64,000 nt of DNA, from the NCBI GenBank assembly GCA_050248355.1, contig JBFWSN010000005.1, positions 37,476 to 101,475 on the forward strand. The letters run 5' to 3'. The translations under genes and the position numbers were made by a program. Position 1 is the stretch's first letter, and the number at the start of each line of letters is the position of its first letter. This document shows positions 4,202 to 9,780 of this stretch, piece by piece. Below the pieces are notes generated by a model. The model was not told where the DNA came from. It worked only from the letters and a program-made list of their open reading frames with translations, and ran no database searches. The DNA is from Dehalococcoidia bacterium (GTDB taxonomy: Bacteria; Chloroflexota; Dehalococcoidia; UBA2979).

Positions 4202-4654
4202 TCATGTAGAAGAGGCTAGCATCTCCCGAACCAGGGCGTTGACTCGACCGCCCTCGGCGCGCCCCGCGACGCGTTTCATGAGCGGGCCCATTACCTTGCC
4301 GAGGTCGCCCGGACCGACGGCACCAGCCTCGGTGATCGCCTCGCGCACGAGGGTCTCGAGCTCCTCGTCCGTGAGGTCGGCCGGGAGATAGGAGGCGATG
4401 ATCGCGAGCTCCGCCTCCTCGTGGTCAACGAGGTCCTGCCGGCCGCCCGCGTGGTACTGCTCAATGGAGTCACGACGCTGGCGGGCCTCCCGCTGGAGTG
4501 CAGCGACGGCCTCCTGATCCGTGAGGTCGTGGCCGGCGGCGATGCGAGCGTAGTCGAGGGCAGCGATCAGCAGCCGGAGCGTGTCGCGCCGGCTGGCGTC
4601 CCCGGCGCGCCAGGCGGCGGTCATGTCATCCCGGATGGTCTGCACGAGTGGCAT
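4202..4654 (-). CDS. GatB/YqeY domain protein
   Basis: Start at the internal MPLVQTIRDDMTAAWRAGD. YqeY-like helical protein immediately upstream (minus strand) of rpsU, as in Bacillus. Confidence 0.8.
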   Translation of the reverse strand: MPLVQTIRDDMTAAWRAGDASRRDTLRLLIAALDYARIAAGHDLTDQEAVAALQREARQRRDSIEQYHAGGRQDLVDHEEAELAIIASYLPADLTDEELETLVREAITEAGAVGPGDLGKVMGPLMKRVAGRAEGGRVNALVREMLASST

Positions 4655-4702
4655 CGACGGGCCTCGAGAAAGCAGAACCCCGGCTGCGCCGGGGTCCACC
4701 AG

Positions 4703-4909
4703 TTAGCGCTGGCGCGCGGCCTGCGTGCGGATGGCCTTGCGCAGCTTGCGGATGCGGGCGGCTTCCTTCTTCTTGCGGCGTACGGAAGGCTTCTCGTAGT
4801 ACTCGTGCCGCCGGGCATCCGAGAGGATGCCATCCGCCTGGACGCGCTTGTTGAAGCGCTTGAGGGCGGACTCCAGGGATTCCATGTCTCCGACTTGAAC
4901 TTCGCTCAC
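4703..4909 (-). CDS. rpsU: 30S ribosomal protein S21
   Basis: [58 protein letters not shown] start at 4909 preceded by GGAGGAG. Confidence 0.85.
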
Positions 4910-4973
4910 TTCGTCTCCTCCACCTCCTTCCATCGGTCACCGCGGTCAACGCGGCGCGTCGCCCCGGACTTCG

Positions 4974-5003
4974 ATCGTAGGAGGGGTCTTCGAGCCGCGT
5001 CAA
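4974..5003 (-). promoter_or_regulatory. putative sigma-70-type promoter of rpsU (TTGACG-N18-TACGAT on the minus strand)
   Basis: The minus strand reads gtTTGACGcggctcgaagacccctccTACGATcg about 60 nt upstream of the rpsU GTG. Confidence 0.35.
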
Positions 5004-5021
5004 ACGCCCCGGGAGACGAGA

Positions 5022-5044
5022 CAGGAGACGCAACGCGTCTCCTG
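5022..5044 (-). terminator. hairpin terminator candidate at the end of the cytochrome bc operon
   Basis: Perfect 10-bp stem CAGGAGACGC / GCGTCTCCTG with a 3-nt loop. On the minus strand it is followed by UCUCGUCUCC, directly after the stop of the last small ORF (5068). Confidence 0.4.
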
Positions 5045-5067
5045 CGCTCCCGAACGCCGCCGCCGAT

Positions 5068-5211
5068 TTAGTCGGCCGAGGGCAGCACCTTCGGCTGGAG
5101 CTCCTCGAGGCCACGGCCGTCGATGTTCAGGTTGCAGTTGCCGGGCTTGATGCAGAGCACCTCGACACCGGACAGCTCGTCTTTGTAACGCTTACCGAGT
5201 GCAACAGCCAT
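5068..5211 (-). CDS. small desulforedoxin-like protein, degenerate paralog (47 aa), absent from the ORF track
   Basis: MAVALGKRYKDELSGVEVLCIKPGNCNLNIDGRGLEELQPKVLPSAD. Strong SD AGGGGGCAGG precedes the ATG. Paralogous to the adjacent 39-aa ORF (GKRY...G.L.C core), with the N-terminal CxxC replaced by D..S. Confidence 0.45.
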   Translation of the reverse strand: MAVALGKRYKDELSGVEVLCIKPGNCNLNIDGRGLEELQPKVLPSAD

Positions 5212-5223
5212 TGAACCTGCCCC

Positions 5224-5343
5224 CTACAGCTGAACGAGATCGGTGTTGTCGCAGCCGCGAAGTTCGCCCTCGCCACCACGAGTGACGATGAACTCAGCGT
5301 TGCAAACGGTGCAACGGTAGCGCTTGCCTGTGACTACGGGCAT
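5224..5343 (-). CDS. small desulforedoxin (Dx)-like metal-binding protein (39 aa), absent from the ORF track
   Basis: MPVVTGKRYRCTVCNAEFIVTRGGEGELRGCDNTDLVQL aligns with the desulforedoxin fold pattern (Y.C..C...V.V..GG..L.C). Strong SD AAGGGGGAA. Begins 64 nt after the cytochrome c stop. Confidence 0.5.
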   Translation of the reverse strand: MPVVTGKRYRCTVCNAEFIVTRGGEGELRGCDNTDLVQL

Positions 5344-5406
5344 TGTTCCCCCTTCGCCCACCCCTGGGCAGATTCCACGCCGCGGCCCGTGCGGACTCGC
5401 GTCGCC

Positions 5407-6333
5407 CTACTCCACGGACTTGATGTACTCCACGAGTGCCGCCACCTGGTCGTCGGTCAGGCTTGCGAATGCCGGCATCACGGGCGCGAACCCCTTTACG
5501 ATCTTCGCGCTGGGGTTCTTGATCGATTCCGTCAGGAACGCATCGTCGGCGGTCACGGTAGAGCCATCCGCGAGCTCCACTTGCGCGCCCGCGAGGCCCT
5601 TCCAAGTCGGGCCGGTGCTGTTCACGCCGGTGACGGTGTGGCAGCCGACGCAGCCGTTCGAGGTCGCAAGTTGCTTGCCCTGCGAGACGAGGTCGCTGCC
5701 GCCATCGGCGCCGGGCGTGCCGGTCGGCTCGGGCGTCCCAGTCGCGAACGGGTCGCGGCTGCGGAACGGCGCTGCCGTCTCAGCGTTGAACTGGCCGCAG
5801 TTCTTCTGGGTGACACCGGAGAGGCTAGCGGGATCGGCGAGGATGTCCTCCTCGGTCTGACCCGTCTCCTCATCGTGCTCGGCACCGATCTCGTGGAGCA
5901 CGTCCCAGTACCCGCCCGTGATCATCGTCACGATCTGGTTAATCTGAGTGTCAGACAGGGTCCCACCGAAGCGCTGACCCCACATTGGCATGAACGTGCC
6001 GGTGCGACCGCACGCGATGGTGTTGAAGAGGTAGTTCCGGATGTCAGTCGCCTGGCCGTCGGGCGTGGCGGGCAGGCCGAACTCGTTGTCCTCCTCGAGG
6101 ATCAGGTATGCGCCGCTGTTGAGGGCGGGTCCAATGTGCCCCTCGCCCTCGAGGCCGTGACAGCTGCGGCAGTTATTCACGAAGAGGCGCGCGCCGCGCT
6201 CGGCGATGCGCTCGTTGATCTCCTCGGTGGCGTGCACCTGGCGGTTGCTCTCGTTCAGCATGTAGCCGCCGAAGAGGAGGATGGACAGCAGCACCACGCC
6301 GATCATGATGTTGACTTGTTTGCTGGTGTTCAT
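5407..6333 (-). CDS. membrane-anchored di-haem cytochrome c of the bc complex
   Basis: Two CxxCH haem-binding motifs (CRSCH, CVGCH) plus an N-terminal TM helix. Last large gene of the b6-subunit IV-Rieske-cytochrome c operon. Confidence 0.85.
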   Translation of the reverse strand: MNTSKQVNIMIGVVLLSILLFGGYMLNESNRQVHATEEINERIAERGARLFVNNCRSCHGLEGEGHIGPALNSGAYLILEEDNEFGLPATPDGQATDIRNYLFNTIACGRTGTFMPMWGQRFGGTLSDTQINQIVTMITGGYWDVLHEIGAEHDEETGQTEEDILADPASLSGVTQKNCGQFNAETAAPFRSRDPFATGTPEPTGTPGADGGSDLVSQGKQLATSNGCVGCHTVTGVNSTGPTWKGLAGAQVELADGSTVTADDAFLTESIKNPSAKIVKGFAPVMPAFASLTDDQVAALVEYIKSVE

Positions 6334-6375
6334 CTTGCTGCCATTCCGCTTGCTTCGGCTGGTTCCGCGCGCTGC

Positions 6376-7068
6376 CTAGCTCGGCAGCTGCGGGTGCTGG
6401 ACGGCTCGTTGCGGGTTATTGACGCCGCCTGACTCGCGAGCGCCGGTGTTCACCGTGATGTTCCCGGCGCCATCGATGCTGATGGCCATGGTGTCCATCG
6501 AGCGGGGCGCGGGACCGAACACGCGCACGCCGGCCTTGGTGTAGGTAGAGCCGTGGCACGGGCAGCGGAACCAGCCCTGATCGCCCTCGTAGGTGAATTC
6601 GGGCCGCCAGGGTACCGTGCAACCGAGGTGCGGGCACTTGTGCCACAGGGCGAGGAGGCCGGCACCGCCGCCGGAACCGCCCAGGCGGGATTCGCCGGGA
6701 TCCAGGTTCACGAGGAAGAACTGGCCATCCGGGAAGTGCTTCGGGTCGCCGCCCAGCGGGTACTCGGAGACGTTGCCACCCGGCACCGGACCACCGAACC
6801 CCTTCACGTTGCGGGGGTAGAGATAGTCGAGCAAGAAGCCGACGGAGCCGAGGAGAGCGAGGCCAAGGCCACCGAGGAACGAGCCACGAATGAAGGTACG
6901 GCGGGAAACATCGGGGTCCTGGCGCGAGGCCTGAGCGCCCGGCACGGCCTGACCTGCGGCCTGCTGGGTGCGGCGGGTGGCGATCGCCTGGCGCCAGGCA
7001 TCGCCGCTCTCGCCGGCGGCCGGCGAAGCGCCGATGCCGGCGCCACTGCTGTCGGCTGCGTTCGTCAT
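6376..7068 (-). CDS. Rieske [2Fe-2S] iron-sulfur subunit of the cytochrome bc complex
   Basis: Rieske boxes CPHLGC...CPCHGS, Tat-type signal SRRTFIRGSF and a TM anchor. The track ORF starts with TTG at 7122; ATG at 7068 is preferred because it has a GAGGGGG SD. Confidence 0.9.
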   Translation of the reverse strand: MTNAADSSGAGIGASPAAGESGDAWRQAIATRRTQQAAGQAVPGAQASRQDPDVSRRTFIRGSFLGGLGLALLGSVGFLLDYLYPRNVKGFGGPVPGGNVSEYPLGGDPKHFPDGQFFLVNLDPGESRLGGSGGGAGLLALWHKCPHLGCTVPWRPEFTYEGDQGWFRCPCHGSTYTKAGVRVFGPAPRSMDTMAISIDGAGNITVNTGARESGGVNNPQRAVQHPQLPS

Positions 7069-7135
7069 CCCTGACGCCCCCTCAAGTGCTCGTCTCCACC
7101 GCCCGAGAGCGGTGACTGTCAAACGGCGCCCGCTC

Positions 7136-8017
7136 CTAAGAGACGGGCGTCTTCACCTCCCAGAACGGAAGGAGCTCCATGCCCTGACCTCGGAACGCGG
7201 TGCCGATGATGGTCATCAGGACGTACACCGCGATGAACCCGGAGAACTGGAGGATCATGTGGTCGCGCCTGGTCCGCGCAAGACCGACTTTCCAGGCGAC
7301 AGCGGACAGGATCAAAGGCAGACCGACCATCAACGAGACCGGAATGATCTGCTGCACGATCAACGCGGGAATGTTGACATCCAGGTCGATCGCGGGCAGC
7401 CCGAGGAGGTCCGTGCGAAGCACCTTCTCGCCGATCGGGACGGTACGCCAGCTCTCGGGCCAGGCGATTTCCTTGTCGAGTGCCGTGGCACTGCGGAGCC
7501 AGTTGAGCTTCGCAGGCCAGTCCGCCTCGGTGTTCCCGGTGAGCTTGGCCCAGAGGACGACGTGCTTGCCGCCGTCCCAGAAGATCAGGAGCAGCGTGCC
7601 GACGGTGCCGACGACAGCACCGACGACCGTGTTGGCGATGGCCCGCGGAGTGCCGAACCACTCGCCCTGCCCCTCGTTCGAGCGGTCGAAGTAGGGGATC
7701 GCGCCGAGGGCGACCAGGGCGACCGTGGGGACGATGACTCCGGCGAGGGCCGGGTGCATGTGGAGCAGCAGCTCCTGAAGGTTCAGGAAGTACCAAGGCG
7801 CCTTCGCGGGGTTCGGGGTGACCGTCGGGTTCGCGCGGTCGAGCAGGGGCGCGTTAATCGCGACGGACAGCGCGAAGATCGTGACCGTGAAGAGGACGGC
7901 GGCGATGAACTCGATGAATACGAGGTCGGGCCAGACGAGGAGTTCCTCGTCCCGCTGCCGCTTCGCGCGGCCGCGTACGGCCTGGGAGGCAGCCTGCTCC
8001 TGAGTCGCGGAGACCAT
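7136..8017 (-). CDS. cytochrome bc complex subunit IV (cytochrome b C-terminal-domain protein, PetD-like)
   Basis: 293 aa. The PetD/cyt b C-terminal-like core (PWYFLNLQELL..) sits immediately downstream of the split cytochrome b6 gene. Confidence 0.85.
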   Translation of the reverse strand: MVSATQEQAASQAVRGRAKRQRDEELLVWPDLVFIEFIAAVLFTVTIFALSVAINAPLLDRANPTVTPNPAKAPWYFLNLQELLLHMHPALAGVIVPTVALVALGAIPYFDRSNEGQGEWFGTPRAIANTVVGAVVGTVGTLLLIFWDGGKHVVLWAKLTGNTEADWPAKLNWLRSATALDKEIAWPESWRTVPIGEKVLRTDLLGLPAIDLDVNIPALIVQQIIPVSLMVGLPLILSAVAWKVGLARTRRDHMILQFSGFIAVYVLMTIIGTAFRGQGMELLPFWEVKTPVS

Positions 8018-8038
8018 CGATGTGTCCCTTCGCCTCGG

Positions 8039-8794
8039 CTACAGCGGCCGGGCCAGGCCGCCGTCGCGGCGGATGCGCCAGAAGTGCACGGCCATGAACA
8101 CCGCCGCGAGCAGCGGGAGCGCGATGACGTGCAGCGTGTAGAAGCGGATGAGCGCGGACGGGCCGACCTCGTAACCGCCGATGAGCGCGAAGCGGTTGGG
8201 TTCACCAAGGATGGGGGCGGATCCCACCATGTTGGTGCCGACGGTGATGGCCCAGAATGCGAGCTGGTCCCACGGCAGCAGGTAGCCCGTGAAGGAGAGC
8301 AGCAGCGTCAGGACGAGCAGTACGACGCCCACGACCCAGTTGAACTCCCGGGGCGGCTTGTACGCGCCCGTGTAGAACACGCGCATCATGTGCATGAGCA
8401 CCATGATCACCATGCCGTGCGCCATCCAGCGATGCATGTTGCGCATCAGGATGCCGAACCGGACATCCGTCTCCAGGCGAAGGATGTCCTCGTACGCTCG
8501 TTCGACCGAGGGCACGTAGTAGAACATCAACAGGACGCCGGAGATGGTCAGACCGAGGAAGAGGAAGAACGACAGCCCGCCGAGGCAGTACGTGTGCGTG
8601 ATCTTCACGTGAGTGCGATGGATACGGGTCGGGTGCAGGTGCAGGAAGACGTTCGTGGCGACGACCAGCATCTGGTTGCGCGGCGTGTTCGGGTAGCCGG
8701 ACCGGAAGATGGACCGCCAGAGCGTGTTATGGAACAGGATGTCGTACGCCCGGTCTCCCAGGCTGCGCGACTCCGGGCGCTCTCTCGTCGCCAT
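8039..8794 (-). CDS. cytochrome b6-type subunit (N-terminal cytochrome b, 4 TM, bis-His haem ligation)
   Basis: 251 aa with conserved cytochrome b motifs (...[40 protein letters not shown]..., [10 protein letters not shown]). A split b/subunit IV arrangement as in b6f/b6c complexes. Confidence 0.9.
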
Positions 8795-8829
8795 TCGATA
8801 CTCCTCGCCTACGGTGAGCTACCGAGGGC

Positions 8830-8937
8830 CTACGTCTCCCACCACTTGCCGAGCATCACCATGACGGCGAGTGAGGAGAAGATGGTGATTACGACACCAA
8901 CCAGCTCCAGCGTCTCGCCGACTTCACCGAAGATCAT
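8830..8937 (-). CDS. small hydrophobic single-TM protein (35 aa), candidate small subunit of the bc complex; absent from the ORF track
   Basis: MIFGEVGETLELVGVVITIFSSLAVMVMLGKWWET. ATG 35 nt upstream of the cytochrome b start, same strand, with one predicted TM helix. Confidence 0.4.
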   Translation of the reverse strand: MIFGEVGETLELVGVVITIFSSLAVMVMLGKWWET

Positions 8938-9018
8938 GGGTGATCCCCCCACGCTGGGAATCGGGGCGCAGGACGCACCGTTCCTGTTTTCACAAGCGCT
9001 CGGATACTAGCCAGCACC

Positions 9019-9780
9019 CTATGTAGCGTCAAGGAAAGTCCGCGGCGGGTCGGCGGGCGGTCGTGATACGCGCGGGACGCCTTTCGAACGGAGACGCCAG
9101 ATGCCGCGCAGATCCTCGGTCGCGGTCTTGACGATGTGGACCCGCGTGTCGGGGTCTTCGTCCCAGCGGACAGGAATCTCGTGGAGGCGGTAGCCGTTCT
9201 TCTGGGCGATGAGCAGCAGCTCTGAGTCGAAGAACCACTGCGTGTCCTTGACCAGCGGCACGATGGCCCTCGCGGCGTCGCGACGCATGGCCTTGAAGCC
9301 ACACTGCGCATCGGACACCTTGAGCCCCGCCAGCGTGCGCAGGATGAACACGTAGGACCGCGAGATGAACTCGCGCTTGAATGAGCGCTTCGTCTGCGAG
9401 CGCTTGTCGAGCCGCGTGCCGTAGGCCACATCCGCCTCGTCGTTCGTGAGTGGGTCGACGAGCTCGGGGATGTGCGCGATGTCCGTAGAAAGGTCGACGT
9501 CCATGTAGGCGACAACGTCGGCGGGCGAGGTGAGCCACGCGACGCGGAGCGCGATGCCGCGGCCCTTCGTCCCGATGTCGAGCGCGAGCACCTTGCCGCC
9601 GGTCTGCTCCTCGAGCTGACGGGCCACCTCGAGGGTGCCGTCGGTGGAAGCGTTGTTCGCGACCACGACGCGCCACTCGTGCTCAGGGTGGTGCTGGAGG
9701 TACCGCAGCAGCGTATCGACGCTGCCCGCGAGGACGTGCTCTTCGTTGTAGACGGGGATGACGAGGTCGACAGTTGCCAT
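9019..9780 (-). CDS. family 2 glycosyltransferase (dolichyl-phosphate mannosyltransferase-like)
   Basis: GT2 signature: LVIPVYNEE...DVDLSTD...CGFKAMRRD. Confidence 0.8.
   Translation of the reverse strand: MATVDLVIPVYNEEHVLAGSVDTLLRYLQHHPEHEWRVVVANNASTDGTLEVARQLEEQTGGKVLALDIGTKGRGIALRVAWLTSPADVVAYMDVDLSTDIAHIPELVDPLTNDEADVAYGTRLDKRSQTKRSFKREFISRSYVFILRTLAGLKVSDAQCGFKAMRRDAARAIVPLVKDTQWFFDSELLLIAQKNGYRLHEIPVRWDEDPDTRVHIVKTATEDLRGIWRLRSKGVPRVSRPPADPPRTFLDAT

Follow-up and report, generated by a model that had tools for sequence, protein, structure and literature searches.

Two very short tandem genes, here called ORF1 and ORF2 (ORF, open reading frame), were found at the 3' end of a Rieske/cytochrome b (bc) operon in the window, a 64,000-nt stretch of contig JBFWSN010000005.1 from a Dehalococcoidia bacterium. 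Both are real protein-coding genes under strong constraint. Their products very probably share the fold and the ancestry of desulforedoxin (Dx), the small iron protein of sulfate reducers, while its metal site is incomplete in ORF1 and lost from ORF2. The explanation that fits best, and that we favour with modest confidence, is a Dx-fold ORF1/ORF2 heterodimer serving as an accessory or assembly partner of the bc complex.

Conservation and coding status of the gene pair

One genome was scanned for each GTDB species, which returned 80 Dehalococcoidia species loci; relatives of ORF2 were present in 385 GTDB species. In 80/80 species loci ORF1 and ORF2 were adjacent, kept the same order and immediately followed the cytochrome c gene of a Rieske/cytochrome b operon, so the conservation downstream of cytochrome c genes that an earlier note on this DNA had suggested looking for was found throughout. 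That note, made from the sequence alone, had described two tandem mini-ORFs with a strong Shine-Dalgarno run each, and both its quoted products and its two runs agree with the sequence (Table 1). GGAGG/GGGGG-type Shine-Dalgarno runs stood 5' of each ORF across the 80 loci. The gap between the two ORFs was 9-20 nt in 73/81 sequences, and the ORF1 stop often lay within the Shine-Dalgarno run of ORF2, as is typical of translational coupling.

Both reading frames carried the marks of purifying selection. Pairwise dN/dS was about 0.13 for ORF2 and 0.18-0.29 for ORF1, and the variability of ORF2 by codon position was 0.29 at the third, 0.07 at the first and 0.03 at the second. ORF2 kept 76-100% identity in loci whose cytochrome c identity was only 33-60%. 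A protein search with ORF2 gave 113 clusters of a 47-aa 'hypothetical protein' from Dehalococcoidia/Chloroflexota metagenome-assembled genomes, while ORF1 gave only 7 clusters, because gene callers seldom call such short ORFs. The query for ORF1 was the 45-aa GTG-extended frame, and its conservation was read from the DNA loci instead. Both genes had been regarded as unannotated, which in public records is true only in part: homologues of ORF2 are called in many of these genomes, those of ORF1 rarely.

It might be supposed that the two ORFs are fortuitous, open by chance in the GC-rich DNA between genes and preceded by G-runs that resemble Shine-Dalgarno sites, since high-GC DNA gives many spurious ORFs and gene finders rarely call ORF1. 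This idea is refuted by the comparative data, and its probability is close to nil: frames, lengths, motifs and start contexts were kept in every locus of the set, dN/dS was well under 1, the AF2 models were confident with a specific known fold, and the wider family held thousands of homologues. An Rfam scan of positions 4500-9300 gave no match above noise, which also speaks against chance frames, and an RNA-element explanation was rejected on the same result.

Several smaller observations concern the variable parts of the pair. One locus (L003) had cytochrome b and S21 proteins 100% identical to those of the window together with a markedly different ORF1 C-terminus, which ended in …DLRCGDDALEQL (5872-5988) as against …ELRGCDNTDLVQL in the window (5224-5260). 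The C-terminal third of ORF1 is fast-evolving, with one Cys kept within one residue of the same position. At 5212-5226 of the window (minus strand) ORF1 and ORF2 share a reading frame, with TAG and four codons between them (…VQL*GAGSMAVA…); programmed read-through from ORF1 to ORF2 was considered and rejected, the gap being no multiple of three in most other loci.

Relationship to desulforedoxin and the metal ligands

ORF1 matched PF06397, the desulfoferrodoxin N-terminal/desulforedoxin domain, with E 1.9e-4 and 21.5 bits, below the gathering score of 23, while ORF2 gave no match to it at E <= 1, and ORF2 and its family matched no Pfam model. Recourse to PF06397, as the earlier note had advised, thus bears out its desulforedoxin pattern with three Cys for ORF1, although under the threshold, and leaves ORF2 without a direct match. 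Matches to PF06397 were obtained for 26/42 members of the ORF1 family (best 5.8e-7). The profiles of ORF1 and ORF2 aligned from end to end as homologues (hhalign probability 94.9%, E 4.6e-8), and a Dx fold was present in the predicted model of ORF2, so it was rightly described as a paralogue in which D and S replace the first two Cys.

Further evidence came from orthologues with complete cysteines. An exhaustive HMMER search with the ORF2 profile retrieved 490 representatives, including two Cys4 proteins, P0125 (E 2e-18) and P0136 (E 3.4e-13). P0136 is a 47-aa ORF2-like protein with the complete C-x2-C…C-C pattern, and P0125 is a 90-aa fusion of two complete Cys4 domains whose C-terminus is QPKVLPSAD. 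Such Cys-complete orthologues, which belong to the same locus, passed the PF06397 gathering score (P0125 with 42.7, P0136 with 34.0 and P0260 with 25.8 bits), and the best PDB sequence match of P0136 was desulforedoxin, in a gapless alignment. With the ORF1 profile, the PDB sequence search returned short-motif noise only (C2H2 fingers, streptavidin), with desulfoferrodoxin (Dfx) at E 0.34.

Classical desulforedoxin is a homodimer in which each chain binds one Fe through a Cys4 site of distorted tetrahedral geometry. It serves as a textbook metal-site model, is known mainly from anaerobic sulfate reducers, and we know of no function assigned to it. The protein of Desulfovibrio gigas (PDB 1DXG/1CFW; PF06397, TIGR00319) could be aligned without gaps, giving a common scaffold G-x2-Y-K…G…G-x-L…G-x2-M (partly by eye). 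In this alignment the ligand positions were C11, C14, an absent third and C31 in ORF1, and D11, S14, I30 and D31 in ORF2, so neither protein has the Cys4 pattern C-x2-C…C-C. Around the third ligand the window reads …LRGC…, as against the commoner form …LRCG…. The CxxC of ORF1 was invariant in the 80 loci, and the third ligand was Cys (shifted by one position in the clade of the window) or His (seven loci). Judged by these residues, ORF1 probably still binds a metal, and ORF2 would be unable to bind one in the Dx manner.

Further differences from desulforedoxin are the use of two different chains, or a fusion, in place of a homodimer, the invariant 9-residue tail QPKVLPSAD added to ORF2, and the host, which is an aerobic-type member of the Dehalococcoidia with the pair in a bc operon and is not a sulfate reducer. 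The Dx dimer of two identical chains finds a parallel in the paired or fused arrangement seen here. The N-terminal domain of desulfoferrodoxin or 2Fe superoxide reductase (SOR; PDB 1DFX, 2JI1) is also similar, since P0136 aligned through …CC..M.LM… into the Dfx linker, but the present proteins end after the tail with no SOR catalytic domain, and their context is respiratory instead of oxidative stress. A Dx-like domain that kept its fold after losing cysteines and iron has a precedent in the class III SOR of Treponema pallidum.

A generic zinc ribbon, of which PF08271 (TFIIB type) and PF09723 are examples, draws four ligands from two CxxC/CxxH knuckles, and ORF1 has one CxxC with one further Cys or His. 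In the Cys-complete orthologue the vicinal CC is the desulforedoxin signature and is no second CxxC knuckle. Both ORF1 and ORF2 carry the invariant, basic GKRY motif. ORF1 and ORF2 are thus regarded as degenerate desulforedoxin derivatives which stand outside the family in a functional sense, since the sequence threshold (marginally by ORF1, entirely by ORF2) and the Cys4 site were missed and the fold and ancestry are shared.

The cysteines retained in most bc-linked forms were the third-ligand Cys of ORF1 and the loop Cys of ORF2 (PG-x-C), not the CxxC pair. Their equivalents in the window are Cys31 of ORF1 (5251-5253) and Cys26 of ORF2 (5134-5136). The ORF2 loop Cys was missing from four variants carrying a loop insertion, and both equivalents were retained in P0299, a fusion lacking CxxC. 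An inter-subunit metal site formed by ORF1 Cys3 and ORF2 Cys26 is not claimed, as the variants showed no covariation.

The gene pair and the bc complex

The place of the pair after the bc genes was occupied by different forms among the lineages. In the L089/L091 lineage two Cys-complete Dx genes were found, namely VANQVGKRYQCTKCGTEMIVTKGGEGSMSCCDQPMEQKK (uncalled) and the 47-aa P0279. In Tepidiformaceae-type genomes (L086-088) a single 100-aa protein stood at the position of the pair; its ORF1-like domain has no CxxC and is fused to an ORF2-like one that bears the PKVLPSAD tail. The P0299 fusion, with no CxxC, retained the locus, the GKRY motifs and the tail. The lineage of the window (Cys3 + Cys0) is intermediate between the Cys4+Cys4 form and the CxxC-less fusion. 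Conserved across these same-locus forms were the two-domain Dx scaffold, GKRY in both halves and the tail, and the metal sites varied. Across the whole family the fusions were the commonest form.

The model of the P0299 fusion was one compact body (pLDDT 87.4, pTM 0.74) whose central strands exceeded those of the isolated ORF2 model in length, and one domain of the fusion superposed on Dx at 0.8 A. In a Foldseek search against the PDB the 100-aa fusion matched nothing significantly over its full length, and its only meaningful match was that of a single domain to Dx.

Signal peptides and hydrophobic segments were absent from both ORF1 and ORF2, so both are taken to be cytoplasmic. They would assemble into a pseudo-symmetric, Dx-like heterodimer mimicking the classical Dx homodimer, and a heterodimer packed in this manner is likely, since classical Dx is homodimeric, the genes are always adjacent and apparently coupled, and single-chain fusions are recurrent. 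Such a heterodimer could hold at most one metal centre, as ORF2 is without all four ligand cysteines. This centre would use the partial site of ORF1, composed of CxxC and one Cys or His, and would probably be structural, with Zn or Fe.

Alternatively, the pair might act as a soluble electron carrier of the rubredoxin type, whose Fe centre would lie in ORF1, shuttling electrons at the cytoplasmic face of the bc complex or with some other partner. The Dx fold classically binds Fe(Cys)4, the CxxC of ORF1 was kept in all species loci with Cys or the conservative His as third ligand, and one lineage has both genes as complete Cys4 Dx domains with an extra cupredoxin gene adjoining. But ORF2 has none of the four ligand cysteines, three-ligand sites are unusual among redox centres of the Fe(Cys)4 type, and Dx-type potentials, which lie near 0 mV, are a poor match to a high-potential bc chain; without signal peptides, moreover, neither protein would reach the cytochrome c side of the membrane. 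The persistence of locus, motifs and tail in the P0299 fusion indicates a conserved function independent of the metal site. A conserved redox role is disfavoured because orthologues range from Cys4+Cys4 (L089/L091) through Cys3+0 (the window) to the CxxC-less fusion, and the carrier is held to be quite improbable. Among the functions raised in the earlier note, assembly factor or peripheral subunit fits better, and electron carrier is the least likely as a conserved role.

ORF1 started 17-138 nt past the stop of cytochrome c (median 84.5, 78 loci). A promoter consensus scan of the region found 3 sites against 0.4 expected from shuffles, as consensus matches which do not imply function, and none lay in the gap between cytochrome c and ORF1 of the window. 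One of them, at 5003-4974, is likely the start of the next transcription unit, rpsU-yqeY, going by its consensus and position. The hairpin at 5044-5022, earlier described as a clean terminator, exists with a folding energy of -26.7 kcal/mol and falls somewhat short of that description: the U-tract is absent, z was -1.71 (9/200 shuffles folded equally well) and a terminator scan of the region did not call it. It is a probable transcript end or 3' stabiliser, and in 45% of the 80 loci the 70 nt 3' of ORF2 folded with z < -2. With no promoter-like site between cytochrome c and ORF1 and with the hairpin and a promoter-like site before rpsU, the placement of the pair at the 3' end of the bc operon was sustained.

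Breaks of synteny fell 3' of ORF2, where a 512-aa amidohydrolase-like gene (L032), additional mobile-element genes (L053), a DJC28_CD gene (L086, L099) and two reverse-strand ORFs (L089) were located. In L099-102 rpsU was absent from the locus, and the pair still followed cytochrome c. Together with the positions of the promoter-like sites, these breaks suggest that the pair belongs to the bc transcription unit.

The pair could instead be unrelated to the bc complex, as a housekeeping zinc-ribbon-like module (e.g. for ribosome or RNA binding) that acts with rpsU-yqeY or alone and owes its position to inherited gene order. The block from cytochrome b through cytochrome c, ORF1, ORF2, rpsU and yqeY to the 7TM-HD gene is syntenic across the class, the GKRY motif is basic and invariant in both proteins, distant relatives lie in unrelated gene contexts, and there is weak similarity to the ribosomal and transcriptional zinc ribbons such as S27e, L37ae and TFIIB. 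In the loci examined, however, unrelated genes were always inserted between ORF2 and rpsU, and the interval from cytochrome c to ORF1 was free of them; the pair outlived the loss of rpsU in L099-102, and the hairpin and the promoter-like site separate ORF2 from rpsU in the window. From this pattern of synteny breaks a housekeeping or ribosome-linked role is disfavoured, and we consider it unlikely.

A number of results weigh against the heterodimer as partner of the bc complex. Generic zinc-ribbon models matched the ORF1 family about as often as PF06397 did, and PF08271 (TFIIB zinc ribbon) gave sub-threshold or weak matches in 23/42 members. The ligand positions of ORF1 and ORF2 did not covary among the locus variants. 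The hairpin exceeded shuffled sequence in stability only marginally. Synteny extended over the entire stretch between cytochrome b and the 7TM-HD gene, and such a fixed gene order within one bacterial class can reflect inheritance and not function. Fused relatives of the LPSSD type in Acidimicrobiia had variable neighbours and no adjoining bc genes, so the fold and the tail are not bc-specific. In view of both sides, we regard the functional link of the pair to the bc complex as evenly balanced between presence and absence.

Under the favoured explanation, the heterodimer as bc partner, the pair would be expressed as the last genes of the Rieske/cytochrome b operon, and translation of ORF2 would be coupled to that of ORF1. 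The ORF2 tail, QPKVLPSAD-COOH, may be a docking peptide, and docking might occur through the tail and/or the paired GKRY surfaces on the cytoplasmic side of the Rieske/cytochrome b complex or of an assembly intermediate. The pair could then belong to the bc complex as a peripheral accessory subunit, or act in its biogenesis or regulation, with no obligatory part as electron carrier.

Small Cys-knuckle proteins are known from other membrane complexes, such as the Zn-binding COX5B of cytochrome oxidase, the rubredoxin RubA of photosystem II and FdhE of formate dehydrogenase. By analogy the pair may resemble these proteins, which are small, are soluble or have a soluble domain, are either encoded alongside a large redox complex of the membrane or attached to its cytoplasmic or matrix face, and serve structure or assembly instead of catalysis; there is no kinship in sequence or fold beyond the metal knuckle, and the binding to the bc complex is only putative here. 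PetG, PetL, PetM and PetN of cytochrome b6f/b6c are likewise very small proteins occurring with a split-cytochrome-b Rieske complex, but each consists of one transmembrane helix, in contrast to the hydrophilic beta-proteins ORF1 and ORF2.

In the literature searched, neither the ORF1/ORF2 proteins nor the tail motif nor any small subunit of a bc complex from Dehalococcoidia was described, and no biochemical or structural study of such a complex was found. The desulforedoxin fold occurs here as a strictly conserved gene pair in a respiratory bc operon of widespread uncultured Dehalococcoidia (the 385 GTDB species), which makes the pair candidate accessory components of a poorly studied complex. 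The natural series from Cys4+Cys4 through Cys3+0 to the metal-free fusion presents a stepwise loss of cysteines, in which the turning of a redox mini-protein into a structural module could be studied. Annotation pipelines could add a large unannotated protein family and two systematically missed small genes. The finding alone settles no long-standing question.

Wider family and other features of the operon

A profile built from diverse members retrieved at least 7,748 proteins, most of which were two-domain 'hypothetical proteins' of about 101 aa from Acidimicrobiia and other Actinobacteria, ending in K-x-LPSSD. These had no Pfam domain and were mostly Cys-poor. Eight distant LPSSD-type loci were inspected (L081, L083, L085, L092-L095 and L097; seven of them from Acidimicrobiia), and no consistent neighbour was shared by the fused genes in them. 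The Dx-fold module is thus generic, and its association with bc genes is specific to Dehalococcoidia.

A wider reading, which is tentative and rather doubtful, would place ORF1, ORF2 and their fused relatives (at least 7,700) in an undescribed superfamily without a Pfam or NCBIfam model. It would consist of largely metal-free, pseudo-dimeric Dx-fold modules whose invariant C-terminal [KR]-x-LP-S-[SA]-D tail might be a docking or adaptor device, and which in Dehalococcoidia might serve a Rieske/cytochrome b complex on its cytoplasmic side, as a new peripheral subunit or as an assembly factor. If true, it would add, with the transmembrane mini-protein encoded upstream, unrecognised small components to the bc complex.

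Three observations were made on the neighbourhoods of the LPSSD-type genes. AMP-binding genes lay within about 3 kb in 3/7 Acidimicrobiia loci, and genes of acyl-CoA metabolism (AMP-binding ligase, enoyl-CoA hydratase, thiolase/ChsH2, acyl-CoA dehydrogenase) flanked 6/8 loci, both counts being without a known background frequency. In L083 the fused gene overlaps a molybdopterin oxidoreductase gene at the stop of the latter.

The features of the region are collected in Table 1.

Table 1. Gene pair, expression signals and neighbouring genes in the window
Feature	Positions	Strand	Remarks
ORF1	5343..5224	minus	39 aa, MPVVTGKRYRCTVCNAEFIVTRGGEGELRGCDNTDLVQL; desulforedoxin-like; Cys11, Cys14 and Cys31 = 3/4 desulforedoxin ligands
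ORF2	5211..5068	minus	47 aa, MAVALGKRYKDELSGVEVLCIKPGNCNLNIDGRGLEELQPKVLPSAD; desulforedoxin-fold; 0/4 ligand cysteines; C-terminal tail PKVLPSAD invariant
Shine-Dalgarno of ORF1	5354-5346	minus	AAGGGGGAA, read from sequence
Shine-Dalgarno of ORF2	5225-5216	minus	AGGGGGCAGG; overlaps TAG stop of ORF1
Hairpin 3' of ORF2	5044-5022	minus	CAGGAGACGC-GTT-GCGTCTCCTG; GC-rich, 10 bp stem, GTT loop, U-tract absent
Cytochrome b, b6-type N-terminal half	8039..8794	minus	PF00033, E 2.5e-45
Cytochrome b C-terminal, subunit IV/PetD-like	7136..8017	minus	PF00032, E 8.2e-7
Rieske iron-sulfur protein	6376..7122	minus	PF00355, E 1.2e-6; CPHLGC…CPCHGS; longest ORF, true start uncertain
Dihaem cytochrome c, N-terminal membrane anchor	5407..6333	minus	two CxxCH; PF00034 E 2.4e-19, PF13442 E 1.6e-17
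rpsU	4933-4703	minus	3' of pair, followed by yqeY and the 7TM-HD protein gene
Promoter-like site TTGACG-17-TAGTAT	9032-9004	minus	candidate operon start; consensus match alone
Promoter-like site TTGACG-18-TACGAT	5003-4974	minus	between hairpin and rpsU; consensus match alone
Single-transmembrane mini-ORF	8830..8952	minus	about 35-40 aa, …MIFGEVGETLELVGVVITIFSSLAVMVMLGKWWET; directly 5' of cytochrome b

The transmembrane mini-ORF was found directly 5' of cytochrome b in 81/82 cytochrome b-bearing loci (tblastn), and it had no NCBIfam match. By analogy with PetG/L/M/N it could be a small membrane subunit of the bc complex, and it is a better analogue of the small Pet subunits than ORF1 or ORF2. 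Homologues were located at 2847-2966 in L086 and at 2377-2499 in L089, and gene finders call it only sometimes.

A DJC28_CD gene (DUF1992, DnaJ-C28-like) stood 3' of the pair at 7384-7884 in L086, at 6231-6725 in L099 and at about 5957-6691 in L071; it is absent from the window, where the spacing from ORF2 to rpsU is only 134 nt. The cytochrome c of the operon was modular between lineages, being fused to LysM repeats and/or a cupredoxin-like C-terminal domain in proteins of 528-619 aa (L071 3933-5762, L086 5276-6862, L089 5091-6774, L099 3840-5699). In L089 a separate cupredoxin gene followed cytochrome c. The window carries the plain dihaem form, of 308 aa.

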